From Candidatus Zixiibacteriota bacterium (GTDB lineage: Bacteria > Zixibacteria > MSB-5A5 > GN15 > FEB-12): DNA of 17,599 nucleotides. The DNA lies in contig JBGSIV010000061.1 in the NCBI GenBank assembly GCA_041742355.1, forward strand, positions 1-17,599, read 5' to 3'. The position numbers were made by a program, and so were the translations under genes. The notes under the pieces are model-generated. The model saw nothing but the letters and a program-made list of their open reading frames with translations, searched no databases and was not told the origin of the DNA. Shown here in pieces: positions 1,958-17,185 of the stretch (position 1 is the stretch's first letter; every line of letters starts with the position of its first letter).

Positions 1958-2251
1958 TCACTTTCCGATAGATCCGATCAGGTAGCCTAGGAGCCAACCA
2001 GCAATGATACACCCAATTACCCAAGCAATGAAGACCCCGAATGGCTCAAAAATCGCTGACCATGAATGATCGCCGGCATGCCTGTTGACCTCTGCAGTTC
2101 CCAGACATTCAAGGCATCCTTGTACGCTACCGCCAATACCAAAGAAGACTGCAAGGATCCGCCCAAAGGTTTTGCCTCGCTCCTCACGCTGGCTCTTGGC
2201 GTTCTTCGCCCCCAACGTCAGAAGCTCCTCAAGCTTGCCAAGTTTTTTCAA
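1958..2251 (-). CDS. Charged helix plus two TM segments; probably the frameshifted C-terminus of the 2229-3248 protein
   Basis: KKLGKLEELL...SQREERGK followed by two hydrophobic segments. TTG start overlaps the end of the upstream ORF in the +1 frame at TTTGAAAAAA. Confidence 0.5.
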   Translation of the reverse strand: MKKLGKLEELLTLGAKNAKSQREERGKTFGRILAVFFGIGGSVQGCLECLGTAEVNRHAGDHSWSAIFEPFGVFIAWVIGCIIAGWLLGYLIGSIGK

Positions 2252-3248
2252 ATCTCTCCAACTCCTGTGTCTTATGAACAGTTGTGATATAAGAATCTGG
2301 CGGCTGATCTCTTAGCGACATGAGCTGATCATAGATATGGCCAAATCGTTCTCCTATCCATTTGTCGGCACCCCTTTTCCTTAAGTCACTCATAGCTGTA
2401 GAGAGGTCTCTGTGGCTCTGCCTCAGAATTGCTCTCTTCTGATCGTGTAATTCCCGCAAAGCGAGATTGGCCGAGTCACGAACTGGTAGCAACTCCGGGT
2501 CCACGAGCGCCTTTGCATAAAACAACGGATAGACTTCGATGGCCTCACGCAAATGCTGCTTCACTCTCGAAAGACAGTCCTCGGAACACGATCGTCCCTG
2601 GGACGCAATTGCTGTGGCGCTGTAGTAATGCGCTTCGGCAAATGCTGCAAAATGAGAAAGAGCTTCACTGTACAAAGAAAGTGCTTCTTCTTGCCTTCCT
2701 AAGCTCGCAGAGCACCGTCCCTCAAGCAGTAAAGCTTGAGCCTGTTGAAGCTTTGTTTCTGCGGCCACCATGCCCAAGTGAAACGTGTCTTTGGCTATTT
2801 CAAGTTCATGAGTCTCGACATATGCGTATCCCAGCGCTATATATGTTCGGTAGAATGATGGATCGATTTGGCGCGCCTCTTGGAGCTTTCTTATGGCCTC
2901 ACTCGCCATCCGGCGATCTAACCTGCTTCTTTGAAGGCACGTATAGCCGATATTGTAATGATCTCTGGCGGCAACAGCTATGGGATGAAGGGCGATGCCA
3001 ATTAAAGTATCAACTTGTTCTCGGATTGCGGCAAATTCGAAGCACAGTACGTCAGTCAAGTCGCGAATAGCCTCAGTAGTAGCCCGTGATTCAATAGCAA
3101 TTTGTTCCAGCTGGGAGTACAGGAAAGAATTGTCCGCGTTTGCCTGTTTAGAAAGCTTCCCCACTAGTGTTCCCACGGACCTAACCGCGCGTGTAGGGCA
3201 GCCATATACTTGATGAGCACTAGATCCGCAATAGAAGCAGCTCGGCAT
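2229..3248 (-). CDS. TPR-repeat protein with N-terminal CCHC zinc knuckle (possibly frameshifted near 2243-2252)
   Basis: SD AGGAGG precedes the ATG. CFYCGSSAHQVYGC matches CX2CX4HX4C. TPR-like helices: ARQIDPSFYRTYIALGYAYVE, LGRQEEALSLYSEAL, FAEAHYYSA, LREAIEVYP. About 50% GC in a sampled line versus about 63% in a cytochrome-gene line. Confidence 0.75.
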   Translation of the reverse strand: MPSCFYCGSSAHQVYGCPTRAVRSVGTLVGKLSKQANADNSFLYSQLEQIAIESRATTEAIRDLTDVLCFEFAAIREQVDTLIGIALHPIAVAARDHYNIGYTCLQRSRLDRRMASEAIRKLQEARQIDPSFYRTYIALGYAYVETHELEIAKDTFHLGMVAAETKLQQAQALLLEGRCSASLGRQEEALSLYSEALSHFAAFAEAHYYSATAIASQGRSCSEDCLSRVKQHLREAIEVYPLFYAKALVDPELLPVRDSANLALRELHDQKRAILRQSHRDLSTAMSDLRKRGADKWIGERFGHIYDQLMSLRDQPPDSYITTVHKTQELERFEKTWQA

Positions 3249-3378: not shown

Positions 3379-3912
3379 CTACTTCACCAGATCAAAATCA
3401 ATGAAGTCGCAATGGTGGAAGATGATGCTCTCGGGGAGGCGTTTTTCCCCTTCGCCTTCTTTGCTGTGGGTGGCGATGATGTGCATCACTTCCGACGGCA
3501 CGCCGTGTTTGAAAGCGAGGCCGACGCCGGAGAACGGGTGGCGGATGTGTTTGCCGTAGTCGGACTTCTTCGGCTGACCATCGACGATTTCAAATTCCAT
3601 CAGCTTGCCGACATCGGCCAAAAGCGCGCCGGCGATGAGGAAGTCGCGGTTGACTCGGGTGCGGCGGTCGCCGTGGATGGCGATGAGGACGTCGTCGCAG
3701 GCGAGGCACATGCGGCAGACAGCGCGGACGTGGTCGATGAAGGTGATCTTGACGTTCTGCGCCAACAGCGTGAAGGGGATGTTGCGCAGGAGGTCTTCGG
3801 TCCAGCCGCGGAATTTGATGGCGTCTTCCCAGCAGGCGATGGTTTTCTGGCGGAGCCCGGGGTCTTTGATTTCGTTGACCTCCGGGAGGAGGCGGGTTAC
3901 AAGGTCGGACAT
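3379..3912 (-). CDS. HD/HDIG-domain metal-dependent phosphohydrolase-like protein (AD in place of HD)
   Basis: Motifs IDHVRAV, GALLADVGKLME, IRHPFSG, HIIATHSKEG, IFHHCDFIDF; GC-rich codon usage; GAGG SD. Confidence 0.85.
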   Translation of the reverse strand: MSDLVTRLLPEVNEIKDPGLRQKTIACWEDAIKFRGWTEDLLRNIPFTLLAQNVKITFIDHVRAVCRMCLACDDVLIAIHGDRRTRVNRDFLIAGALLADVGKLMEFEIVDGQPKKSDYGKHIRHPFSGVGLAFKHGVPSEVMHIIATHSKEGEGEKRLPESIIFHHCDFIDFDLVK

Positions 3913-3967: not shown

Positions 3968-3995
3968 GTCACCCTTCGACTACGCTCAGGGTGAC
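3968..3995. repeat. REP-like palindrome family A, copy 2
   Basis: GTCACCCTTCGACTACGCTCAGGGTGAC, the reverse complement of 499-526. Confidence 0.85.
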
Positions 3996-4066
3996 GAGGG
4001 CAGTGTCGTATCTCGAGATCCGGGAGCACGCCGTGGGCGACCCGTTTCGCTCACCCTTCGGCTTCC

Positions 4067-4094
4067 GCCACCCTTCGACTACGCTCAGGGTGAC
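4067..4094. repeat. REP-like palindrome family A, copy 3
   Basis: GCCACCCTTCGACTACGCTCAGGGTGAC, one mismatch to copy 2. A degenerate fourth copy begins at 4208 (GTCACCCCTCGAGTCCGCTCA). Confidence 0.8.
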
Positions 4095-4102
4095 GGCCGA
4101 AA

Positions 4103-4202
4103 AGTCAAGCACGCAGAGCCGTGCTTGACCTACCTTCCATTCAATGCAGCGTCATCAAGTCGGGTTTCTCGGGACCGTTGGTCCCTCGGAACACCGACCT
4201 AC
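4103..4202. repeat. Composite GTAG-type REP doublet, family B, copy 2
   Basis: Direct repeat of 653-749, offset by 3450 nt. Confidence 0.8.
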
Positions 4203-4523: not shown

Positions 4524-5126
4524 ATGGCGACTGGAACAGACCGAAAAGCGCAAATCCTCGACGGGGCGACGCGGCTGTTTGCCGAGCAGGGGTACGGGGG
4601 GATGACGATGAAGATGCTTGCGACTGAGTGCGGCATCACCGAGCCGGCGCTGTACCGTCATTATGCCTCGAAGGAAGCATTGTACGAGGCGGTGCTGGAG
4701 ACGCTGGCGGCGCGGCTTAATTCGGAGGCGTTTTTCGCCAGTGTGAGCAGATCGGCGGGGCTCGAGGAGGTGCTGTCGGGATTGGCGGAGCATGTGGTGG
4801 AGTACTACACGCGCAACGCTGACACCTACCGGTTGCTGCTTTTTTCGGCGCTCAACGGCCATGCGAAGGCGAAGCAGGTGTTCACGGTACTGCGAGGGGC
4901 GTACGTGAAGTTCCTGGTCGGGCACTTGGACCGTCTATACGCAGAGGGGAAGATCGTGAAGAAGAATAACGAGATTACGGCGCGATGCTTTGTCGGGATG
5001 GTGTTTGATTGTGCGCTGTCGTTCACGCTGTGGCGGGGGTTTTACGGCAAGGTGTACCGGCCGGAAGAGACGATTGCGAACAATGTGCCCATTTACGTTC
5101 GGGGGCTGACGACTGAATCAGTTTAA
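4524..5126 (+). CDS. TetR/AcrR family transcriptional regulator
   Basis: N-terminal HTH RKAQILDGATRLFAEQGYGGMTMKMLATECGITEPALYRHYASKEALY; 200 aa. Confidence 0.95.
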   Translation: MATGTDRKAQILDGATRLFAEQGYGGMTMKMLATECGITEPALYRHYASKEALYEAVLETLAARLNSEAFFASVSRSAGLEEVLSGLAEHVVEYYTRNADTYRLLLFSALNGHAKAKQVFTVLRGAYVKFLVGHLDRLYAEGKIVKKNNEITARCFVGMVFDCALSFTLWRGFYGKVYRPEETIANNVPIYVRGLTTESV

Positions 5127-5177: not shown

Positions 5178-6119
5178 ATGGGTTGCTTCCTGAAAGGAGA
5201 AGGCCGGGCGATGCGTCTTGTGCTGCTTCTGGCAGTGCCGTCGTTCGGGCTTTTCTTTGCCGGTAACCTATCGGCGGGCGTTGCCAACAGCGCCTGCGCG
5301 GACTGTCACGAACTTAGTGAAACATTTCACAAAACTCCCCACGGGGTGTACTTCTCGCAGGATGCCGACCTGGCGGAGGCGAGTTGTGAAAAATGTCACG
5401 GTTCGGCGGTCGATCATCTCAATTCGGGCGATCCGAAAGACATACTGAATCCGGCCAAGATGGATCAGTTCGGGTCGTCGTTCTTGTGCCTGAACTGCCA
5501 CAAAGGGCATCAGTTCGATGAATGGGCATTCAGCGCGCACAACACGGCCGGGGTGAAATGCGCCTCGTGCCACACGATTCACGCCGACTACACGGCCGAA
5601 AAGACATCGGAAACCGAGATGTGTTTCGGGTGTCACTCGGAAGTGCGGGCGTCGACGTTTATGCCGTCGCATCACCCGATTGCCGAAGGCAAACTGACCT
5701 GCCGCGACTGCCACAACGTGCACGGCGGTGAGACGATGTTTGTCGAGGATCAGACAGCGGGCGAGTTGTGCTACTCGTGCCACGCGGAGAAGGAGGGGCC
5801 GTTCGTGTACGAGCACGCCCCGGTGCAGGAGGACTGCATGATCTGCCATTCGCCTCACGGGACGGTAGCGGACAACCTGCTCAAGCAATCGGAGCCGGCG
5901 CTGTGCCTGAACTGTCACTCGATGCACTTCCACGCGACAGTGGAGGGGGTCGAGGGGACGTTTATCCCGCCGGCCGAGCCCGACCGCGTGACCGAGTCGA
6001 CGTTGGGCGCCTGGAAGAGCGGCATGCTGACCAAGTGCTCGCAGTGCCACACGGCGGTGCACGGCAGCGACCTGCCGTCGCAAACGATCTCAACCGGCGG
6101 CAACGCCCTCACAAGGTAG
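5178..6119 (+). CDS. mtrA: MtrA/DmsE-family periplasmic decaheme c-type cytochrome
   Basis: Ten CXXCH (CADCH, CEKCH, CLNCH, CASCH, CFGCH, CRDCH, CYSCH, CMICH, CLNCH, CSQCH). Family motifs PSHHPIAEG, CHAEKEGPFVYEHAPVQEDC, CHTAVHGSD. Signal peptide present; SD GGAGG before 5178, alternative ATG at 5211. Confidence 0.93.
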   Translation: MGCFLKGEGRAMRLVLLLAVPSFGLFFAGNLSAGVANSACADCHELSETFHKTPHGVYFSQDADLAEASCEKCHGSAVDHLNSGDPKDILNPAKMDQFGSSFLCLNCHKGHQFDEWAFSAHNTAGVKCASCHTIHADYTAEKTSETEMCFGCHSEVRASTFMPSHHPIAEGKLTCRDCHNVHGGETMFVEDQTAGELCYSCHAEKEGPFVYEHAPVQEDCMICHSPHGTVADNLLKQSEPALCLNCHSMHFHATVEGVEGTFIPPAEPDRVTESTLGAWKSGMLTKCSQCHTAVHGSDLPSQTISTGGNALTR

Positions 6120-6128
6120 GAGGAACCG

Positions 6129-8360
6129 ATGAAGCGTTATGTACTGATGATCGCGGTTGCCCTGACCTTGTGCGCAGTGTCTGTCGGCGCCCAGACCGAC
6201 ACGACCGCGTTCGATCGCTACTCGTTGTGGCTGGGCGGCCACTACACGGATTTCAACGACTACGCCAAGAAGGTCGGGGAGTACCGCCTGATCGACGACA
6301 ACGTGTTCGGCGAATTTCGGCTCGACCTGCTGTCGCGCCGGGGGAGCACGCTGTTCTCGCTGAACGGCCACTTCTTTGACGAGAAGAATATCCTGGGGCA
6401 GGTGAATGTCACGACGGGGAACCGTCTGGCGGCCAGTTTCCAGTACCGGTCGCTGGTGCACCAGCTTGGCCAGGATCTGCTTTCGAACCTGGCTGCGCGG
6501 GAGGCGATCAACGGCGCTCCCGGCGGAAAGATGCTCACGCACGAAATTCTCGATCCGGGAGCGGATTACAACATCCACCGCCAGGAAGTGCTGAGCACGT
6601 TCGACGTGCTCCTGTCGGAGCGCGGCAACGTGCACATGGTGGCGGCGCACCGGATGATCCTGCGCGAGGGAACCGACCAGTCGCGTTCGGTGTCGCACTG
6701 CTTCAGCTGCCATGCGGAGTCCCGCACGCGCCAGGTGCAGAACACGACGCACAACCTGGAACTGGGACTTCAGGCGGATCTGACCGAGGACAAGACGATC
6801 GGCTACCGCTTCGGGTACCGCCAGTTCAAGTCCGACGCGCCGGACGCCTACGCGCCCTATGATGATGCCAAGCACCCGACGGCGATCACGAACGCCGGGA
6901 CGGAAGCGGAGTTCGACTCGCGGCAGGCGTACGAGGATACGACGCTGCGGGTGAATGCGCTGCCGCAGACGGAGAAGATGTCGCACCGGGTGCGGTTCAA
7001 GGGTAACCTGGGCAAGGGGCGGTTCTCGACGGCGCTCGGGTACGCTCGCACGGAGAACCAGGAGACCGACCTCTCGAGCGATGCGGTGACCGGGACAATC
7101 AACTACTCGCATCCGCTCGGCGATCAGACGCGGCTGGTGGCGAAAGTGTACGCGGCGCGGCAGGAGGCGGACGATCCGTTTATCGATCTGCCGACCTATC
7201 GCGCGGGTCGCCCCGGCGGAGCGGCCTTTGCGAACCTCGAGTTCGACTACACCCGTTACTCGGTGATCGACCGGACACATGCCCGGGCGACGGCCGAGGT
7301 GATCCACCGGCTCAACCCGCGGTGGACGGTGTCCGTGCTCGGCGGCTACGAGATGATCGACCGGGACGACTACCCGGTGGCCGATGACGGGCTGCAGACC
7401 AAGCGGTTTATCGGGCAAATCGGAGCCCGATTCCGTAAGGGCCTGAACTACAGCTCCAGGATGAAGTACCGTTTCGAGAAGACATCCGACCCGTTCGTGT
7501 CCGGACGCGGGCTCTTCGAGTATCCGGGCGTGGACAGCCTGGCCCGCGACTGGAACGGCACGGGCGCGACATTCGGGTTCATCTTCTACCACGATCGTGA
7601 AGACCTGCGGTATCAGGCGATCACGACCGAGCCGACCGATTTCCACCAGTTCGAGTGGAATTCCAACTGGCAGGCGACGCCGAAGGTCGGTCTTTCGATC
7701 GGGGTGCGCGGGTTCTACGACAAGAACTCCGATCTGGACAGCCTCGATGTGAGCCACTTCTCGTTCATCCCGAACCTGAATGTCAATCTGACGCCGTCGG
7801 ACAAGCTGGCGGCGACAGTCGGGTATACATACAATCACTATAAGTCAAGAGGGCCGGTCTCAGTCGCCCTCTTCGATGGCTGAGCTGGCCACCTCTTTGC
7901 GGACACCGTGAGTGTCCAAGGCTCGCCCTCGGATTCAGTGATTGCGCCGTTCCACTACGGTTCGGAATACCAGATGGTCGATTACACGACCAACACCCAT
8001 ACGTTCTACCTGAGCGCCGGCCTGGCGGCGACCGCGAAACTGCGGTTGAACGGGCTGGTGACTTACAATCTGGCGGAAGGCTCGCTTGAAGAAGGGATTC
8101 TGCCGGAAGAGGAGATCTTCTACAATGGGGTCCAGGTGCTGGCGCACCAGGATTTCTCGTTTGAGGAAATGTCCGAATACTCCAACCTTGACTACGAACT
8201 GCTGCGGATAGCGGCGGGGATGGAGTACCAGTTGACCCCGCAGATAATGCTGACGGTTGATGGGGAATTGGCCGATCTGACCGACAACGAAGGGTATGTT
8301 TTCGGGAACGAATCGGGTAGTTTCTACATGATCCGATCGGGATTCAGGTTCAATTTCTAG
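6129..8360 (+). CDS. Outer-membrane beta-barrel (MtrB-position porin) with one CXXCH and a probable selenocysteine at codon 585; 743 aa
   Basis: ORFs 6129-7883 and 7908-8360 share a frame and are separated only by TGA at 7881-7883 (ALFDG-U-AGHLFADTV). The signal peptide is only in part 1 and the C-terminal beta-signal GFRFNF only in part 2. Amphipathic beta-strand patterns occur in both parts; CFSCH at residues 191-195; SECIS-like hairpin follows the TGA. Confidence 0.8.
7884..7921 (+). promoter_or_regulatory. Putative bacterial SECIS element
   Basis: Stem GGACAC (7901-7906)/GTGTCC (7912-7917) with loop CGTGA containing GU, 23 nt after the UGA; extendable by CTT/AAG pairing. Confidence 0.65.
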
Positions 8361-8369
8361 GGTACTATG

Positions 8370-8409
8370 AGCCGGTCGGTCACAACCGTGACCGACCGGC
8401 TAACTGTTT
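8370..8409 (+). terminator. Strong hairpin after the porin gene (terminator or stability element)
   Basis: Perfect 14-bp stem AGCCGGTCGGTCAC-AACC-GTGACCGACCGGCT; only a weak U tract (AACTGTTT). Confidence 0.6.
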
Positions 8410-8596: not shown

Positions 8597-10117
8597 ATGA
8601 ATAAGAATTCTCGCACAAAACGGACACTGTTCGGGCACCCACTGGCGGCTCTCGGCGGCGCGTTGGCGCTGGCCGGCGGGGCGCTGTTTATCATTCTGGT
8701 CCTGATTGATCTGAGCGCCGGCGACGAAAACATGTACCGGTCGCTGGTGGCGTTCGTGCTGGCGCCGGCCGTGATTTTGATCGGTGTCGTCATCTTCCTG
8801 ATTTCGGTGCGTATCCAGATCGGGAATGCGCGACGGGCGGGGGAGGATGTCAGTTTCACCCTGTCGATCGATCCGGCCGACGCGAAGTACGTTCGCAACC
8901 TCTGGCTGTTTCTGGGGTTCACGGCGGTGCTCGTACTGGTGGTGGTATTCGCCGGGACCGAGGCCTACGAGGCCACCGAGTCGGTGACGTTCTGCGGGGA
9001 GACCTGCCACACGGTGATGGAGCCGCAGTATGTGACATACCATAACTCGCCGCACGCCAAGGTGCCGTGCGCGGAGTGCCATATCGGCCCCGGGGCGTCG
9101 TTCTGGGTCAAGTCGAAGATCGACGGCATGCGGCAGGTGTGGGCGACCATGTTCACGACCTACGAGCGCCCGATCGAGACGCCGATTGTGAACCTGCGCC
9201 CGGCGCGGGAAACCTGCGAGCATTGCCACTGGCCGCAGCAGTTCTACGGCGACAAGCTGATCACGCGGACCTACTACCGGACGGACGAGGCGAACTCGCC
9301 GTGGACGATCAGCCTTCGGGTGAAGATCGGCGGCGGGAATCCGAAGGAGTCGGGCTCGCTGGAGGGGATCCACTACCACATGTTGTCGGAGCGGAGCCTT
9401 GAGTATATCGCGACCGACGACAAGCGCCAGACGATCGCCTGGGTGCGGGCGGTGGATTTGAACGGCGACACCACGGTGTATGTCAACCAGGAGGTCGAAA
9501 CGCCGGATCTGTCAAACCCTGAGGTGGAGGTGCGGATGTTCGACTGCATGGATTGCCACAACCGGCCGTCGCACCAGTTCACGCCGCCGGCGACCGCGGT
9601 CAACCGGGCACTGCGGGCGGGGGAGATCTCGACACGGCTGCCGTATATCCGCCAGGTGGGTGTCGATCTGCTCAATGCCCAGTATGCGACGAAGGATTCG
9701 GCGCTGGCGGCGATCGAAACCGGACTGGCAAGCTACTACGAAGAAAATTACACGGGTCTTACGGACTCGTTGCGCGACGAACTCAACCGGGCATCAACAG
9801 TCCTCCAGCAAATCTACAGTCAGAATTTCTTTCCGGAGATGAACACCGATTACCGGGTTCGGGAGAATCACCTGAGCCACTTTGTCAACGACGGCTGCTT
9901 CCGGTGCCACAATACCTCGATGGTGAGCGCCGAAGGGAAGACGATTGCCAACGACTGCCAGACGTGCCACTATATCGTGGCTCAGGGGCCGTCGGCGGAG
10001 ATCGACAGCCTGCAGACGAGCCTGGCCGGGCTTGGGTTTGTGCATCCGGAAGAGATCGATGATGCGTGGAAGGAAGTGAACTGCACCGCCTGCCATACCT
10101 CGGATCAAGGGTATTGA
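8597..10117 (+). CDS. Membrane-anchored NapC/NirT-domain multiheme cytochrome c (6 CXXCH + 1 CX3CH)
   Basis: Three N-terminal TM helices; TESVTFCGETCHTVMEPQY...SPHAKVPCAECHI...KSKIDG is NapC/NirT-like; further motifs CEHCH, CMDCH, CFRCH, CQTCH, CTACH. Confidence 0.9.
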   Translation: MNKNSRTKRTLFGHPLAALGGALALAGGALFIILVLIDLSAGDENMYRSLVAFVLAPAVILIGVVIFLISVRIQIGNARRAGEDVSFTLSIDPADAKYVRNLWLFLGFTAVLVLVVVFAGTEAYEATESVTFCGETCHTVMEPQYVTYHNSPHAKVPCAECHIGPGASFWVKSKIDGMRQVWATMFTTYERPIETPIVNLRPARETCEHCHWPQQFYGDKLITRTYYRTDEANSPWTISLRVKIGGGNPKESGSLEGIHYHMLSERSLEYIATDDKRQTIAWVRAVDLNGDTTVYVNQEVETPDLSNPEVEVRMFDCMDCHNRPSHQFTPPATAVNRALRAGEISTRLPYIRQVGVDLLNAQYATKDSALAAIETGLASYYEENYTGLTDSLRDELNRASTVLQQIYSQNFFPEMNTDYRVRENHLSHFVNDGCFRCHNTSMVSAEGKTIANDCQTCHYIVAQGPSAEIDSLQTSLAGLGFVHPEEIDDAWKEVNCTACHTSDQGY

Positions 10118-10133
10118 GCCGGCCGCAAGAGAT

Positions 10134-13046
10134 ATGAAGCACCGAGCGATTTTGCTGCTGCTGGCCGGAGTGCTCCTGGCGCTGCCGGTCCTGGCCCAGG
10201 ATAACGAGACCTGCCTCATGTGCCACGCCGACGAGAGCCTGACGGGCACGAGGGCGGGTGCGGAGGTGTCGATGCACGTGGCCGAAGGAGTGCTGACGGG
10301 CACGGTGCACGAGGGGCTCGAATGCATTTCCTGCCACGCTGATCTCGACGGGGTCGAGGATTTCCCCCATGCCGAGGATCTGCAGCCGGTTGACTGCGGG
10401 ATGTGCCATGAAGCCGGCGCGGCGCTGGCTAAGAGCGTGCATGGACCGATCGCACAGTGTTGGGACTGCCACGGCAACCACCGAATTCTTTCGCCGACCG
10501 ACTCCGACCCGGGCGGCGACGGTGTGCATTGCGGTTCATGCCATGATGATATTGCGAAGATCTACGCCGGGTCGCTGCACGGCAAGCTGGTACACGAGGG
10601 AGCCGAACTGGCGCCGCGCTGCTGGGACTGCCACAGCGGACACGAAGTGTTGCCGGCGGACAACCCGAAGTCGCAGGTGACGAAGTTCAACATTCCCTTC
10701 ATGTGCGGCGAGTGCCACAAGGAGGGGACGCCGGTCACGCAGCGGTACGATGTGCCGCAGGACAGCATTCTCGAGCACTACTCCGAGTCGATCCACGGGA
10801 TCGGCCTGTTCAAACAGGGGCTGACTGTGACGGCGGTGTGTTCCAACTGCCACACGGCCCACAATGTTCGTGATCACATGGATCCGCAATCGAGCATTCA
10901 CCGGGATAACATCGCCGCGACGTGCCGTCAGTGCCACGGCCGTATTGAGGAAGTGCACCAGAAGGTGATCCGGGGCGAGCTGTGGGAAAAGGAGCCGGGG
11001 AACGTGCCCGTGTGTGTCGACTGCCATTCGCCGCACGAGATCCGGCGGGTGAGTTATGAAGAGGGAATGTCGGACCGGGAGTGCCTGGCCTGCCACGGGA
11101 AGAAGAACCTGACGATGGTGCGGGGCGGGGAGACGATTTCGATCTATGTCGATTCGCTCGAGGCGCACAGCTCGGTGCACCGAGGGACATCGTGCGCGCA
11201 GTGTCACACCGGGGTGACGCCGAATCACAAGGAGCGTCCGTGCGCGACGGTGGTCAACCGGGTCGACTGCTCGGTGTGCCATGCGGAAGTGGTGACTGTA
11301 TACAAGGAGAGCACGCACGGGGTACTGGCCGACAAGGGGGATCCGGAAGCGCCGGAGTGTGTCGACTGCCACGGCGTGCACGGGGTGCTGGATCGCCGGA
11401 ATCCGAAGTCGAGGACATTCCCGACCAACGTGCCGAAGCTCTGCGCGCAGTGCCACCAGGCGGGTGGGGCGGCGGCGAAGCGGATCAACGAGAATCACGA
11501 GCGTATCGACGAGTATGTCGAGAGTATCCACGGCAAGGGGTTGCTTGAGAGCGGGCTGGTGACGACGGCGATGTGCACGAGCTGCCACACGGCGCACCAC
11601 GTGCTGCCGCAGACCGATCCGCGGTCGAGCGTGAACCGGGCCAATATTCCCAAAACGTGCGCGACCTGCCACAACGGCATATACGAAAAGTTTGAGCAGA
11701 GCGTGCACTCGGCGGCGGTGACTGAGACGGACAAGAAGCTGCCGACGTGTTACGACTGCCACCAGTCGCACCAGATCACACGGGCCGACCAGGCGAATTT
11801 CCGCCTGACGGTGCGCAAGCAGTGCGGCGAGTGCCACGAGGATGTGACCGAATCTTACTTTGAGACGGTGCACGGCAAGGTGTCGGATCTGGGCGGGGTG
11901 GCGGCGGCGCAGTGCTACGACTGCCACGGTTCGCACGACATCCTGCCGCCGAGCGATCCGACCTCGCACCTGGCGCGGGAGAATATCGTGGAGACGTGCG
12001 GACAGTGCCACAAGGGATCGCACCGCCAGTTCGCGGGCTACCTGACGCACGCCACGCACCACGACCGGACGAAGTACCCGATCCTGTTCTACGCCTTCTG
12101 GTTCATGACGACGCTGCTGGTGGGGACACTGCTGGTGGCGGGGGCGCACACGATTATGTGGCTGCCGAAGTCGTGGCAGATGATGAAAGAGCACAAGCAG
12201 CTCCGCAGGCAGTACAAGGGGAGCATGGAGTACCGCCGGTTCAAGCCGCTGCACAGCAAGCTGCACATCATGGTGGTGACGAGCTTCCTGGCGCTGGCGG
12301 TCACGGGGATGGTGCTGAAGTTCTCGTACCTCGGCTGGGCGCAGTGGATCAGCGAAGCGCTCGGCGGGTTCGAGTCGACCAGCTACATTCACCGGCTGGC
12401 GGCGATTGTGACGTTTGCCTATTTCGGGATTCACATCTGGGATCTGATTCAGCAGAAGCGGCGAGAACGCAAGACCTGGCGCGAGTTCCTGCTGGACAAG
12501 AATTCGATGCTGCCGAACATGAACGATCTGCGGGAGTTCGGGGCCACGATCAAGTGGTTCCTGGGCAAGGGGGAACGGCCCCGCTACGGGCGCTGGACGT
12601 ACTGGGAGAAGTTCGACTACTTCGCGGTGTTCTGGGGGGTGGCGATCATCGGGACGACCGGGCTGATGCTCTGGTTCCCCGAGATCTTCACACGGCTGCT
12701 GCCGGGCTGGGTGATCAATGTCGCCCAGATCGTGCACTCCGATGAAGCGCTGCTGGCGGTGGCGTTCATCTTCACCGTGCACTTCTTCAACACGCACTTC
12801 CGCCCGGACAAATTCCCGATGGATACGGTGATTTTCACCGGCCGGGTGCCGGTCGAGGAGCTCAAGAATGACCGCCCGGGCGAGTACGAGGAACTGCTGG
12901 CGTCGCGGAAGATCAAGGATCACCTGGTCGAGCCGCTGCCGCCGGTGATGGTGCGGACGGCGAAGATATTCGGGACGGTGGCCCTGACGATCGGGATAAT
13001 CCTAATTCTGCTCATCATTTACGCGGAGATATTCGGGTACCGTTGA
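10134..13046 (+). CDS. CbcL-like fusion: 21-CXXCH periplasmic multiheme c domain plus C-terminal FdnI/HydC-type cytochrome b
   Basis: Signal peptide; 21 CXXCH counted by hand; membrane domain with KLHIMVV, YIHRLAA, GRWTYWEKFDYFAVFWG, IVHSDEALLA...TVHFFNTH. Confidence 0.9.
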   Translation: MKHRAILLLLAGVLLALPVLAQDNETCLMCHADESLTGTRAGAEVSMHVAEGVLTGTVHEGLECISCHADLDGVEDFPHAEDLQPVDCGMCHEAGAALAKSVHGPIAQCWDCHGNHRILSPTDSDPGGDGVHCGSCHDDIAKIYAGSLHGKLVHEGAELAPRCWDCHSGHEVLPADNPKSQVTKFNIPFMCGECHKEGTPVTQRYDVPQDSILEHYSESIHGIGLFKQGLTVTAVCSNCHTAHNVRDHMDPQSSIHRDNIAATCRQCHGRIEEVHQKVIRGELWEKEPGNVPVCVDCHSPHEIRRVSYEEGMSDRECLACHGKKNLTMVRGGETISIYVDSLEAHSSVHRGTSCAQCHTGVTPNHKERPCATVVNRVDCSVCHAEVVTVYKESTHGVLADKGDPEAPECVDCHGVHGVLDRRNPKSRTFPTNVPKLCAQCHQAGGAAAKRINENHERIDEYVESIHGKGLLESGLVTTAMCTSCHTAHHVLPQTDPRSSVNRANIPKTCATCHNGIYEKFEQSVHSAAVTETDKKLPTCYDCHQSHQITRADQANFRLTVRKQCGECHEDVTESYFETVHGKVSDLGGVAAAQCYDCHGSHDILPPSDPTSHLARENIVETCGQCHKGSHRQFAGYLTHATHHDRTKYPILFYAFWFMTTLLVGTLLVAGAHTIMWLPKSWQMMKEHKQLRRQYKGSMEYRRFKPLHSKLHIMVVTSFLALAVTGMVLKFSYLGWAQWISEALGGFESTSYIHRLAAIVTFAYFGIHIWDLIQQKRRERKTWREFLLDKNSMLPNMNDLREFGATIKWFLGKGERPRYGRWTYWEKFDYFAVFWGVAIIGTTGLMLWFPEIFTRLLPGWVINVAQIVHSDEALLAVAFIFTVHFFNTHFRPDKFPMDTVIFTGRVPVEELKNDRPGEYEELLASRKIKDHLVEPLPPVMVRTAKIFGTVALTIGIILILLIIYAEIFGYR

Positions 13047-13085
13047 TTTTCCGCTTGGAGATAGTAGAGTAATGAATATATTACT

Positions 13086-13103
13086 TCGTGAAATATATCA
13101 CAA
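13086..13103. promoter_or_regulatory. Rex-type operator upstream of the second CbcL-like gene
   Basis: TCGTGAA-ATAT-ATCACAA (12/14) in an AT-rich 78-nt spacer, downstream of a candidate promoter TTGATT (13043-13048), 16 nt, TAGAGT (13065-13070). Confidence 0.6.
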
Positions 13104-13124
13104 AATAGATCTGAGAGGTCGAAT

Positions 13125-15095
13125 ATGATGTACGGAAGCGGCGGATGGCGGAAAGCCCTGGGACTGGTGGTCCTGGCGTCTATTCTGCTGACGCCGGCGG
13201 TTTTCGCCCAGGATGACAACGAGACCTGCCTTTCCTGCCACTCGGATGAGAGCCTGACGGGTTTGGATCATGCGGGCAAGGAGGTTCCGATGTTCGCAAC
13301 CCAGGCGTCGCTCGATTCCTCGGTGCACGCCGGGTTCACCTGTGTGGACTGCCATACCGATCTGGCGGGCGGCTCGGAATACCCCCATGCCGATTCGCTG
13401 GCGCCGGTGGATTGCGGGACCTGCCACAGTGATGTCGCCGAGCTGTACCTTTCGTCGGCGCACTTCAACGCGCACAACCCGAGAGCGGCGACCTGTGCCT
13501 CGTGCCACAACCATCACAATATTCTTTCGGATTCGAATCCGGAGGCGTGGACCTCGGCGGGAAAGCTGCCTTATACGTGCAGTAACTGCCACAGCGAGCA
13601 GACGCTGAAGGATGATCCGGATATCAGGCTGGCCGATTCGTTCGACCGCTACATGCGGGGAATTCACGCGCGTGGAATTCAAAAGGGGATCGGCTCCGCG
13701 GCCTCGTGCAACGACTGTCACGGGATGCACGACTTGAAAAAAGCCTCAGATCCGGGGTCCCTCGTGCACAAGATGAACATCCCGAAGACCTGTTCGAAGT
13801 GCCACAACGATATCTATATCCAGTACGCGCGCGGGATTCACGGCAAGGCGCTGGCGGCGGGCATTCTGGATTCGCCGAACTGCTCGGACTGCCACGGCGA
13901 ACATGAGATTCTCGAGATCAACAAGGAAGGTTCGCCGGTCAACCACGCGAACCTCGCCGACTATGTGTGCGGCAAGTGCCACCAGGACCCGCAGATGGTG
14001 GAGAAGTACGGTTTGAGCGAGCGGCAGTTCACGTCGTACCAGGATTCGTACCACGGGTTGGCGGTGCGCGGCGGGTCGCTCAAGGCGGCGACCTGCGTGT
14101 CGTGCCACGAGGCCCACGCAATCCTGCCGCAGTCGAACATAGCCTCGTCGATTCACCCGGACAACGTGACAACGACCTGCCAGCAGTGCCATCCACAGGC
14201 GAACGCCGAATTCGCGCAGAGCTATACCCACGCGGTGTATGCGGCGGGCGGCGAAAACAAGCTCGACAACATCGTAGAGACGGTGTACATCTGGCTGATC
14301 GTGCTCACGATCGGCGGGATGCTCCTGCACAACCTGATCATTGTCGGACGGTTTGTGGTCGAGAAGCAGCGGAAGATGAAGGGCCAGCCGACCGTGCAGC
14401 GGTTCACCGGGGCGATGATCTACCAGCACATGGTGGTGACGATCACGTTCATCACGCTGGTGCTGACCGGGTTCGCCCTGCGGTATCCGGATGCCTGGTG
14501 GGTGGCGATGTTGAATTTCCTGCGTATCGACGAAGGTGTGCGCGGAACGCTTCACCGGATCGCGGCCGTGCTCCTGTGCTACATCGCGCTGCACCACGGC
14601 CTGTACCTGTTCCTCTTCCGCAAGGGGCGGACGGAACTGAAGGCGATCTGGTTCACCATGAAAGACCTGAAGGACATGGTCCAGAATGTCAAGTACCACC
14701 TCGGCATGACCAAGGAGAAGCCGCGTTTCGGACGGTTCGACTACACCGAAAAGGCCGAGTACTGGGCGCTGGTGTGGGGTACAGTGGTGATGGCCCTGAC
14801 CGGGTTCGTCCTGTGGTTCCCGACCTTCTGGACGCAGTTCCTGCCGTCGTGGGTGGTGAAAGTCTCCGAGACGATTCACCTCTACGAAGCGTGGCTGGCG
14901 ACACTGGCGATTGTCGTCTTCCACTTCTTCTTCGTGATTTTCCATCCGGAGCAGTACCCGATGTCGTTTACCTGGCTAACGGGTAAGATGACGGTGAAGG
15001 AGTGCGAGGAGCACCATCCGGAGTGGTATGAGAATCTGAAGAAGGAGCCGGACGGCGTGCAGGCGCCGGAGGACAAGCCGAAGTCGGCGGTGTAA
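13125..15095 (+). CDS. CbcL-like fusion: 11-CXXCH multiheme c domain plus FdnI/HydC-type cytochrome b
   Basis: Signal peptide; 11 CXXCH; membrane domain with YQHMVV, LHRIAA, GRFDYTEKAEYWALVWG, IHLYEAWLA...FHFF. Paralogue of the upstream gene (both mature starts read QD(D)NETCL.CH.DESLTG). Confidence 0.92.
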   Translation: MMYGSGGWRKALGLVVLASILLTPAVFAQDDNETCLSCHSDESLTGLDHAGKEVPMFATQASLDSSVHAGFTCVDCHTDLAGGSEYPHADSLAPVDCGTCHSDVAELYLSSAHFNAHNPRAATCASCHNHHNILSDSNPEAWTSAGKLPYTCSNCHSEQTLKDDPDIRLADSFDRYMRGIHARGIQKGIGSAASCNDCHGMHDLKKASDPGSLVHKMNIPKTCSKCHNDIYIQYARGIHGKALAAGILDSPNCSDCHGEHEILEINKEGSPVNHANLADYVCGKCHQDPQMVEKYGLSERQFTSYQDSYHGLAVRGGSLKAATCVSCHEAHAILPQSNIASSIHPDNVTTTCQQCHPQANAEFAQSYTHAVYAAGGENKLDNIVETVYIWLIVLTIGGMLLHNLIIVGRFVVEKQRKMKGQPTVQRFTGAMIYQHMVVTITFITLVLTGFALRYPDAWWVAMLNFLRIDEGVRGTLHRIAAVLLCYIALHHGLYLFLFRKGRTELKAIWFTMKDLKDMVQNVKYHLGMTKEKPRFGRFDYTEKAEYWALVWGTVVMALTGFVLWFPTFWTQFLPSWVVKVSETIHLYEAWLATLAIVVFHFFFVIFHPEQYPMSFTWLTGKMTVKECEEHHPEWYENLKKEPDGVQAPEDKPKSAV

Positions 15096-15444: not shown

Positions 15445-15483
15445 AGTGTCTGAGCGTCAGGTCTGAGTCTTGCCGTGTCCTGC

Positions 15484-15512
15484 TTGCCCCTGCCCCGGCG
15501 ACGACCTATATT
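15484..15512 (+). promoter_or_regulatory. Sigma70 promoter placing +1 at or near the rqcH ATG
   Basis: TTGCCC (15484-15489), 17 nt, TATATT (15507-15512), then CCCCC and ATG at 15518; no SD. Confidence 0.5.
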
Positions 15513-15517
15513 CCCCC

Positions 15518-17185
15518 ATGCAAACCGCACTGCACATACTGGCCCTGGTCGATGAACTTCGCCGCGAAGTAACCGGCGGGCGCGTTGTCTCCACCGAGTT
15601 CTATAAGAAGGACCGCGCCGCGTATATCTTCGTCAAGGGGCCCAACACCCGGGTCGCGCTCGGGTTTCTGTACCATCCGCACGGCTACGGCGTGTTCGTG
15701 ATTCCCGCGTCGAAAGTTAAAATCGACACCCGTGAGAAACCCTGGCCGATATTCGCGCTCGACGGCGCAGCGGTTACAGCTGTCGAACAACTGGTGCTGG
15801 ATCGGCTGTTCACTCTGACGATTGGGGCGGGGGAGACAGAAGTAAAGGTGGTGGTCGAGGCGACCGGCGCGAACGGGAATCTCTGGCTCGTGGATGCCGA
15901 CGGGGCGGTGCGCGGCACGCTGCGCAAGCGGGATGTCAACCCCGGCGAAACCTATACGCCCCCGGAGCCGTTCGGCGGGCTCGATCCGTTCGAACTCACC
16001 GCTGATGATCTGATCGCGCTCGCCGACGAATCGCCGGAGAGCAGCCCGATCATGCTCCTGCAGAAGAACATTGTCGGGTTCAATCGCACGCTGGCGATCG
16101 AGGCGGTGCACCGGGCGGGGATCGACCGCGAGGATCGCACGCCGGATTCATTGGGAGCACTGGCGCGGACAGTGCGCGATCTCGCCAACAGGTTTCGCAG
16201 TGCCGACTCAGGATACCTGCATACAGTGGCCGGACGGCCGGAGGTTTATCCCTTCAAGCTCGCGTCGGCCGGCGAACCGGAGGAGAAGTTCAAGAGCCTG
16301 TCGCTGGCGGTGTACCACATGACCACGGTGCGCCAGACGACAACCGAGCAGGCGGATGAAGAGAAGACGGTACTGTCGGCGGTCAACCGGGCAATCAAGC
16401 GCCTCGAACGCAGGATCGCCAATGTCGAGGGAGATCTTGTGCAGGCCACCGATTTCGAACGGTACAAGCGACTCGGCGAACTGCTCCAGATCAATTTCGA
16501 TTCGATTAAGCGCGGGATGGAGTCAATTACGGTCGAGGATATCTTCCTCGATCCGCACGAAGCGGTGACGATCAAACTGGATCCGGCCCAGTCGCCATCG
16601 GAGAATGTCGACGAGTATTTCAAGAAGCACCGCAAGGGGCGCGAGGGGCTGGAGTTGTTGCAGCGGCGTCTCGAAATCAGCCGGGTCGAACTGGCCGAAC
16701 TTCGGCGGATGCACGAGGAGCTTTCGCAGAATTTCGAGTCGGCCCGCGAGCGGTATCGGATCGACATCGAATCGCTCCTACCAAAAGAGGGTGCGAAGGA
16801 TGAAACGGCGCCAAGGCTTCCGTATCGGGAATACACCCTCTCGACCGGGCTGACGATCTTCGTGGGGCGCGACGGCTCCGACAACGACCGCACGACGTTC
16901 GAATACGCGAAGCCGTACGAGATTTGGCTGCACACGCAGCAGTGCCCGGGGTCGCACGTCGTGATCAAGCACCCGAACAAGTCGTTCGAGCCGTCGAAAG
17001 CGGAGATCGCCGAGGCGGCCGCGATTGCGGCGTGGTTCTCCAAGGCGCGCAACGATACGATGGTGCCGGTGATATTCACTGAGCGCCGGTATGTGCGCAA
17101 GCCGCGCAAGGCGAAACCGGGGCTGGTGACGGTGGAGAAGGAGAAGTCGGTGATGGTCGCGCCGACGAAGCCGTCGGGGGAGTGA
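15518..17185 (+). CDS. rqcH: Rqc2/RqcH (NFACT, FbpA-like) ribosome quality-control protein, 555 aa
   Basis: NFACT-N with VEQLVLDRLF and GANGNLWLVD; coiled coils with GELLQIN and LDPAQSPSENVDEYFKK; NFACT-R IFVGRDGSDND...WLHTQQCPGSHVVI...RYVRKPRKAKPGLV. Start moved from 15470 to the ATG at 15518. Confidence 0.92.
   Translation: MQTALHILALVDELRREVTGGRVVSTEFYKKDRAAYIFVKGPNTRVALGFLYHPHGYGVFVIPASKVKIDTREKPWPIFALDGAAVTAVEQLVLDRLFTLTIGAGETEVKVVVEATGANGNLWLVDADGAVRGTLRKRDVNPGETYTPPEPFGGLDPFELTADDLIALADESPESSPIMLLQKNIVGFNRTLAIEAVHRAGIDREDRTPDSLGALARTVRDLANRFRSADSGYLHTVAGRPEVYPFKLASAGEPEEKFKSLSLAVYHMTTVRQTTTEQADEEKTVLSAVNRAIKRLERRIANVEGDLVQATDFERYKRLGELLQINFDSIKRGMESITVEDIFLDPHEAVTIKLDPAQSPSENVDEYFKKHRKGREGLELLQRRLEISRVELAELRRMHEELSQNFESARERYRIDIESLLPKEGAKDETAPRLPYREYTLSTGLTIFVGRDGSDNDRTTFEYAKPYEIWLHTQQCPGSHVVIKHPNKSFEPSKAEIAEAAAIAAWFSKARNDTMVPVIFTERRYVRKPRKAKPGLVTVEKEKSVMVAPTKPSGE

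Follow-up and report, generated by a model that had tools for sequence, protein, structure and literature searches.

The in-frame TGA at positions 7881-7883 of the DNA analysed here (the window, 17,599 nucleotides of a Candidatus Zixiibacteriota contig) is almost certainly a selenocysteine codon, as judged from its conservation, and the apparently broken gene around it is almost certainly intact. The encoded outer-membrane barrel is a real selenoprotein and an additional member of a family (GSU2204/OmcL) that is already catalogued yet uncharacterised. Together with the decaheme cytochrome encoded upstream, it very probably forms an MtrAB-like conduit. The explanation that best covers the whole of the evidence is a self-capping conduit, in which an eleventh heme, carried by the barrel, and the selenocysteine would work together; we would accept this proposal about as readily as we would doubt it. 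The features are collected in Table 1.

Table 1. Features of the barrel locus, with positions in the window
Feature	Position	Strand	Evidence
TetR-family regulator, probable first operon gene	4524..5126	+	PF00440, E 7e-18; homologue at the same position in 9/22 large loci
MtrA/DmsE-like decaheme cytochrome (GSU2203/OmcK type), 10 CXXCH	5178..6119	+	TIGR03508 229 bits (cut-off 192); NF041028 322.4 bits (cut-off 325)
Decaheme residues H250-F-H252, giving one conserved His beyond the need of ten bis-His hemes	5925..5933	+	H250 47/47, H252 46/47
Shine-Dalgarno AGGAGG of the barrel gene	6118..6123	+	Sequence
Barrel gene, selenoprotein of 743 aa forming an outer-membrane barrel of the GSU2204/OmcL family; model with 26 strands (hand count from DSSP)	6129..8360	+	NF041027 536.8 bits; AlphaFold2 on the 123-row alignment, mean pLDDT 88.6; best structural match MtrB 6R2Q_B
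Predicted Sec-type signal peptide of the barrel gene, 21 aa	6129..6191	+	Translation inspected by eye
H190 and heme c motif C191-FS-C194-H195, tip of the long hairpin between strands 7 and 8, predicted outer face	6696..6713	+	C, C and H each in 122/123 rows; model topology
TGA read as Sec585, tip of extended strand 21, predicted outer face	7881..7883	+	Conservation, Cys homologues, model topology
Apical hairpin of a bacterial SECIS, with a stem of 5-6 bp and a loop of 5 nt whose second position is G	7901..7917	+	91.6% of cells paired across 50 sequences (+22 to +36), 41 compensatory cells (counts inflated by kinship)
Intrinsic-terminator-like hairpin closing the TetR-decaheme-barrel unit	8370..8409	+	14-bp perfect stem and T-rich tail

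Under translation table 11 the barrel frame is read as 6129-7883 (584 aa) and a GTG-started piece at 7908-8360 (150 aa), and the 584-residue piece is the product carried in databases. With TGA read as U, a single 743-residue chain is obtained over 6129-8360, with one recoded codon, U585, and FRFNF as its C-terminus. The sequence bears out the original prediction that one TGA splits a continuous 743-codon frame, with the signal peptide in the 5′ part and FRFNF in the 3′ part. The GTG of the second ORF, which has no Shine-Dalgarno sequence, does lie, as had been proposed, in the loop of a hairpin (GGACAC-CGTGA-GTGTCC, 7901-7917).

Of the 285 genomes searched in the phylum, 116 gave a match to the barrel. 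Residue 585 is spanned by 110 matches (tallied by hand from the table), and in 108 of these a TGA is the single internal stop; the remaining two are a same-genus copy with TGA and TAG, apparently broken, and one without any stop. A decayed-looking copy, present as two gene pieces only and with additional stops, was observed in a same-genus genome (G099:C5:10438-11531). The codon sits at DG-U-[AG] in all 50 distinct TGA-bearing loci extracted, and among the 120 matches listed of the 169 in the first protein search (one being the entry itself), every one ends in FDG, right before the codon. Distant relatives (22-54% identity to their query) have TGA after Gly, 135-155 further open codons where the contig permits, and the same type of loop. 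A metagenome scan with these relatives yielded 76 loci, and those that reach the site show TGA after Gly, Cys, or a shorter loop lacking Sec. Gly584 is invariant (123/123 rows). Alignment of 209 proteins revealed Gly-Cys at the Sec column in 40 full-length homologues, which occupy two places in the tree and suggest at least two separate Sec-to-Cys changes. The codon was also verified in contigs from two other studies (runs X4 and X5); these span it and every differing letter lies elsewhere, so the TGA does not stem from misassembly.

Pairing of the hairpin 3′ of the TGA was not reached in any of 500 shuffles, and slid windows gave 19-48%. Two-sided changes were found at all five pairs, although kinship among the sequences inflates such counts. 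Folded as a single sequence, the region could not be told from shuffled versions of itself (z −0.41 to +0.93); the SECIS assignment draws its support from covariation. Rfam gave no match in the window, and a SECIS-like pattern scan of the genome is not specific, since 388 of 127,062 TGA triplets match. A terminator-like hairpin was sought after the TGA and none was found, while the 14-bp stem at 8370-8401 stands directly past the TAG.

The genome holds selA and selD above cut-off and a tRNA-Sec. The selB gene occurs as two pieces at facing contig ends (G000:C4 and C18), each below cut-off; it stands beside selA, on the same contig as tRNA-Sec. All of selA, selB, selC and selD were hence found, selB being split over two contigs. 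The selD gene (C212:3483-4403) contains an in-frame TGA of its own, and selA is above cut-off in 258 of the 285 phylum genomes. Cytochrome c assembly genes were found as well. Taken together, the TGA as only internal stop in 108/110 matches, the covarying SECIS, the 40 Cys homologues and the machinery in the genome uphold the readthrough that had been predicted. The Sec column shows a conserved TGA or Cys, and neither a non-Cys column, nor missing Sec machinery, nor a sequence error, nor differing frames of the two parts was found. Insertion of selenocysteine at UGA 585 we consider nearly beyond doubt.

The barrel matches NF041027 over model positions 2-580 of 580, far above the cut-off of 350 bits, and the model stops at residue 584, with Sec585 coming next. 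A distant member of the GSU2204 family had been suspected; the family was correct, and the protein is a full member rather than a distant one. In profile searches the GSU2204-family model is matched; the MtrB/PioB models PF11854 and TIGR03509 leave the barrel unmatched at E ≤ 0.01 and find nothing in the genome at E ≤ 0.001. PF11854 is matched by many relatives of the barrel. Close relatives are labelled Zixibacteria, and the clade that holds the barrel most likely belongs there; MtrAB-like genes in a Zixibacteria genome have been described in a report whose main text is silent on selenium (PMC3903129). The NF041027 family appears as a one-Sec MtrB/PioB-like barrel selenoprotein in Table 1 of a 2026 review (PMC13188914); the main text of PMC2398784, apparently cited there, contains none of the words 'GSU', 'cytochrome' and 'barrel'. 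Nothing on the Sec or the heme of the GSU2204 family is contained in the accessible text of PMC11492766, PMC12977616, PMC13194489, PMC1794560, PMC1914089, PMC2398784 and PMC13741234. A literature search on the family, covering the main text of accessible papers, found no biochemical study and no test of the role of selenium.

In its predicted fold, the barrel is closest to MtrB. Comparison of the model with MtrB (6R2Q_B) gave a Foldseek E of 7e-24 and TM of 0.66/0.73, and a Z of 25.9 with an rmsd of 3.2 Å over 573 aligned residues (runner-up Z 18.8), at a sequence identity of 12%. A PDB sequence search with the barrel at E ≤ 10 gave no relative and a plasmid search gave no matches. The motif CFSCH corresponds to residues 191-195, and one CXXCH is present in each of 121 sequences checked. 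Retention of the motif and the 26-strand model agree with the heme-motif barrel that the original prediction described. The 584-residue product would, according to the model, miss the final five strands and the beta-signal.

The model places CXXCH and Sec on the long-loop (outer) face, about 14 strands apart and on roughly opposite walls. The strand at CXXCH (in the strand 7-8 hairpin) and strand 21, which Sec follows, are each predicted to be 23 residues long as against about 13 typically. As the hairpins are long and lie on the same face, Sec and CXXCH could meet over the pore; the outer opening of MtrB is given as about 15 Å in the accessible text of PMC7198977. The Sec loop is poorly modelled (mature residues 563-582, pLDDT < 50), and its length varies among relatives. 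Sec and the heme are likely to lie within one site if the modelled topology is followed, and both this topology and the covariation described below are compatible with Sec585 ligating the heme or forming a catalytic site.

The barrel protein has Cys at 15, 191 and 194 only, so a resolving Cys is absent. In distant relatives, Cys residues co-occur at columns 463 and 578 (numbering of the window protein), 33 times together against 9.2 expected. The Cys at column 578 was considered as a resolving residue and set aside, being paired with Cys463; the pair is likely a structural disulfide joining two outer loops. His588 was likewise considered as a catalytic partner of Sec and dropped, as it is lost in distant relatives.

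The decaheme cytochrome lies directly upstream of the barrel in all 22 large loci (one of them clipped by the contig end) and matches the MtrA chain 6R2Q_A with E 1.5e-47, in support of the MtrAB-like pairing proposed at the outset. NF041028 is its best model, the score falling just short of the cut-off. Eleven conserved His residues are found outside the motifs, against the ten required for ten bis-His hemes, and H250/H252 align with the surface-exposed segment of MtrA; exposure of an MtrA stretch at the cell surface is described in PMC7198977. Both genes were readable by script in 81 loci with a Sec or Cys barrel (74 and 7, respectively), and the decaheme has HxH in every one of them. The second His is missing in two Sec-less loci (by script) and in four further loci of the second Sec-less group.

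A parallel shift was observed at residue 190, just before the heme motif. It is H in 67, K in 48 and M in 6 rows of the 123-row alignment; nearly all Sec/Cys forms have His or Lys, a Sec-less clade of six has Met, and the second Sec-less group is variable. Counting ligands, two spare ligand-type residues are obtained in Sec forms and zero in the Met-type L046. The tracking of Sec/Cys by the extra His suggests that a composite redox site lies at the surface; with only two Sec-less groups behind it, the covariation amounts to few independent events, and it is taken as a lead rather than proof.

The Met-type clade comprises L046:7786-9930 and P0188, P0206, P0213, P0251 and P0265, with Met preceding CXXCH and a shortened loop; where scored, it falls under the NF041027 cut-off, and one member is from Thermotomaculum hydrothermale. 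The second Sec-less group of CXXCH barrels (L124, L126, L127 and L129-L131; full length in L124, L126, L127 and L130) resides in cytochrome-rich clusters and has a differing decaheme loop. The idea of Met190 as a general substitute for Sec is weakened, as it is confined to one clade and the second group varies (Q, M, V or H).

No MtrC-type gene is present in the operon. Past the terminator, at 8597-15095, three genes encode a NapC/NirT-like multiheme protein (6 CXXCH and one CX3CH) and 21-heme and 11-heme cytochromes. The latter two both carry a fused cytochrome b domain, and homologues occur nearby in 9/22 loci; we take these fusions to resemble CbcL, and the genes could plausibly connect the conduit to quinol. 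Scanning of neighbours (78 and 65 ORFs, subsets of the ORFs in the loci concerned) revealed no recurring substrate-related, sulfur or enzyme-type gene. Two identical 27-nt palindromic repeats and one inverted repeat, presumably REP-like, occupy intergenic positions 3970-3996, 4069-4095 and 4104-4129. RqcH/NFACT, HD-domain and TPR genes at 15470-17185 (+), 3379-3912 (−) and 2229-3248 (−) are apparently unrelated to the barrel.

Comparison with known systems shows where the barrel departs from them. MtrAB of Shewanella (PDB 6R2Q), PioAB and MtoAB share with it a 26-strand barrel (here from the model) and an MtrA-homologous decaheme upstream; unlike them, this barrel has CXXCH and Sec on predicted outer hairpins, in an operon without an MtrC-type gene. 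GSU2204/OmcL of Geobacter sulfurreducens shares one CXXCH and the adjacent decaheme, and there is no difference in kind. OmcKL was termed a porin:cytochrome conduit in PMC10553843, where OmcK is placed extracellularly and the absence of a periplasmic partner is deemed unusual, the word 'seleno' not occurring in the main text; in contrast to that view, OmcK here looks like MtrA and the barrel itself would provide the outer heme. The fused cytochrome-porins Cyc2 and Cyt572 likewise bear one c-heme on a barrel of the outer membrane; their barrel has 16 strands and the heme sits in an N-terminal periplasmic domain, as far as the accessible text of PMC13741234 describes them, against 26 predicted strands, an internal motif at residue 191 and a decaheme partner in the present case. 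MccSep (ExtKL, GSU2937-2936) resembles the barrel in combining Sec with c-type heme in a single protein and in having a gene split at UGA. It differs in architecture, being soluble and periplasmic, a pentaheme tetramer in which a Cys ligates heme; such a Cys is missing from the barrel (PMC13510729, in part). A search of the genome with NF040886 (MccSep) gave nothing above cut-off. By analogy, MccSep would be the best mechanistic guide to the barrel.

In the proposed self-capping conduit, SelB would read the SECIS and Sec would be inserted at UGA 585 to give one 743-residue selenoprotein, which would be exported, receive heme c at C191/C194 and be inserted into the outer membrane. Its MtrB-type 26-strand barrel would sheathe the upstream decaheme and, in place of an MtrC cap, would itself supply an eleventh heme, borne by a long hairpin on the outer side, with Sec585 on a second long hairpin of the opposite wall. 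Sec585, the barrel heme, residue 190 (His/Lys) and the extra His of the decaheme would probably constitute a redox site at the pore mouth. Sec would then most likely serve as a chalcogen nucleophile, acting next to the heme or, transiently, upon it, and turn over with electrons passing through the wire. Granted a shared site, the analogy tips slightly to a nucleophile rather than a static ligand, since the ligand count is satisfied without Sec and MccSep offers a precedent, a Sec nucleophile next to a His/Cys heme in polysulfide reduction (PMC13510729, accessible text). Against a nucleophile site we count the missing resolving Cys, the non-conserved H588 and the existence of heme-motif relatives without Sec, together with the poorly modelled Sec loop, the failure of any substrate-related or sulfur gene to recur among the neighbours scanned, and the small number of Sec-less groups.

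As substrates, extracellular S-S or Se/Te species would be the likeliest. The sequence itself shows the Sec codon with its SECIS and machinery, the heme motif, the pairing of the two genes and the covariation; fold and topology are model predictions, and we infer that the complex forms, that heme is attached and lies near Sec, what chemistry and substrate are involved, and which way electrons flow. The published expression points to minerals and interspecies transfer over sulfur: on hematite and magnetite, GSU2203/2204 expression is about 1.5-2.7-fold higher in the accessible text of PMC4070692, and high expression of OmcKL in ANME-1/HotSeep-1 consortia is described in that of PMC10553843. A generalisation to OmcKL-type conduits as a two-protein surface heme-selenium centre, in which the barrel would supply the eleventh heme and Sec, possibly as a Sec-ligated heme, and the decaheme its extra His, is offered tentatively, as somewhat short of likely.

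This expression pattern would suit the main rival reading, a pure electron conduit without substrate chemistry, in which Sec585 is a permanent second axial ligand of the barrel heme and gives it a very low potential, suited to electron exchange with minerals, cytochrome filaments or partner cells. Retention of Sec or Cys at the column accords with this reading, Cys being a known heme ligand, as do the Met, a ligand-type residue, at position 190 of six Sec-less relatives and the failure of enzyme-type neighbours to recur. Nevertheless, it leaves H/K190 and the extra decaheme His without a role, even though the latter tracks Sec/Cys in every locus scored, and the Met type is a single clade beside a second Sec-less group with Q, M, V or H. 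In MccSep, a heme-Sec enzyme of solved structure, the heme ligand is Cys and not Sec (PMC13510729, in part). On balance a permanent Sec ligand is rather unlikely. A search of the literature found no natural Sec-ligated heme, and none is known to us.

Sec and heme might also be independent, the heme extending the wire and a Sec on a flexible loop binding soft metals or metalloids, or sensing redox state and gating the pore. The variable length and low modelling confidence of the Sec loop, the placing of the two motifs on opposite walls and the lack of a resolving Cys would agree with this; the invariance of G584 and the shift of both the decaheme His and residue 190 where Sec is lost do not, and we hold such independence to be quite improbable.

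Other readings of the TGA, as a genuine stop in a split gene or pseudogene, as an error of sequencing or as a codon for Trp or Gly, are scarcely credible, even with a 584-residue product in databases and a few records with Gly at the column, given the conserved codon, frame and hairpin, the Cys homologues, the Sec machinery, the agreeing contigs of other studies and a 584-residue product predicted to end short of the last five strands and the beta-signal. As for Gly, P0318, which has it at the Sec position, is 599/600 identical to P0357/P0358, which stop there; this suggests that a gene caller probably read TGA as Gly. No Gly was seen in the DNA of the metagenome-scan loci, and the Gly forms are doubtful as true losses of Sec.

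The conduit with a composite heme-selenium site at its outer end, our preferred reading, bears on a family which is common, with named relatives in Acidobacteriota, Aminicenantes and Deltaproteobacteria besides its wide presence in this phylum. Since gene callers truncate at UGA and this member escapes the MtrB Pfam model, the family is probably under-represented in surveys of extracellular electron transfer. To what is catalogued, the present analysis adds the tracking of Sec/Cys barrels by the extra decaheme His, and the covarying residues mark positions of interest. If Sec and the barrel heme share one site, this would be a new way of ending a trans-membrane wire without MtrC, and selenium supply would be tied to mineral, sulfur or interspecies electron exchange. 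If the composite centre is real, an MtrAB wire would become an oxidoreductase that faces outward or an electrode of low potential, and selenium would be required by a conduit that is highly expressed in a syntrophic partner of ANME.
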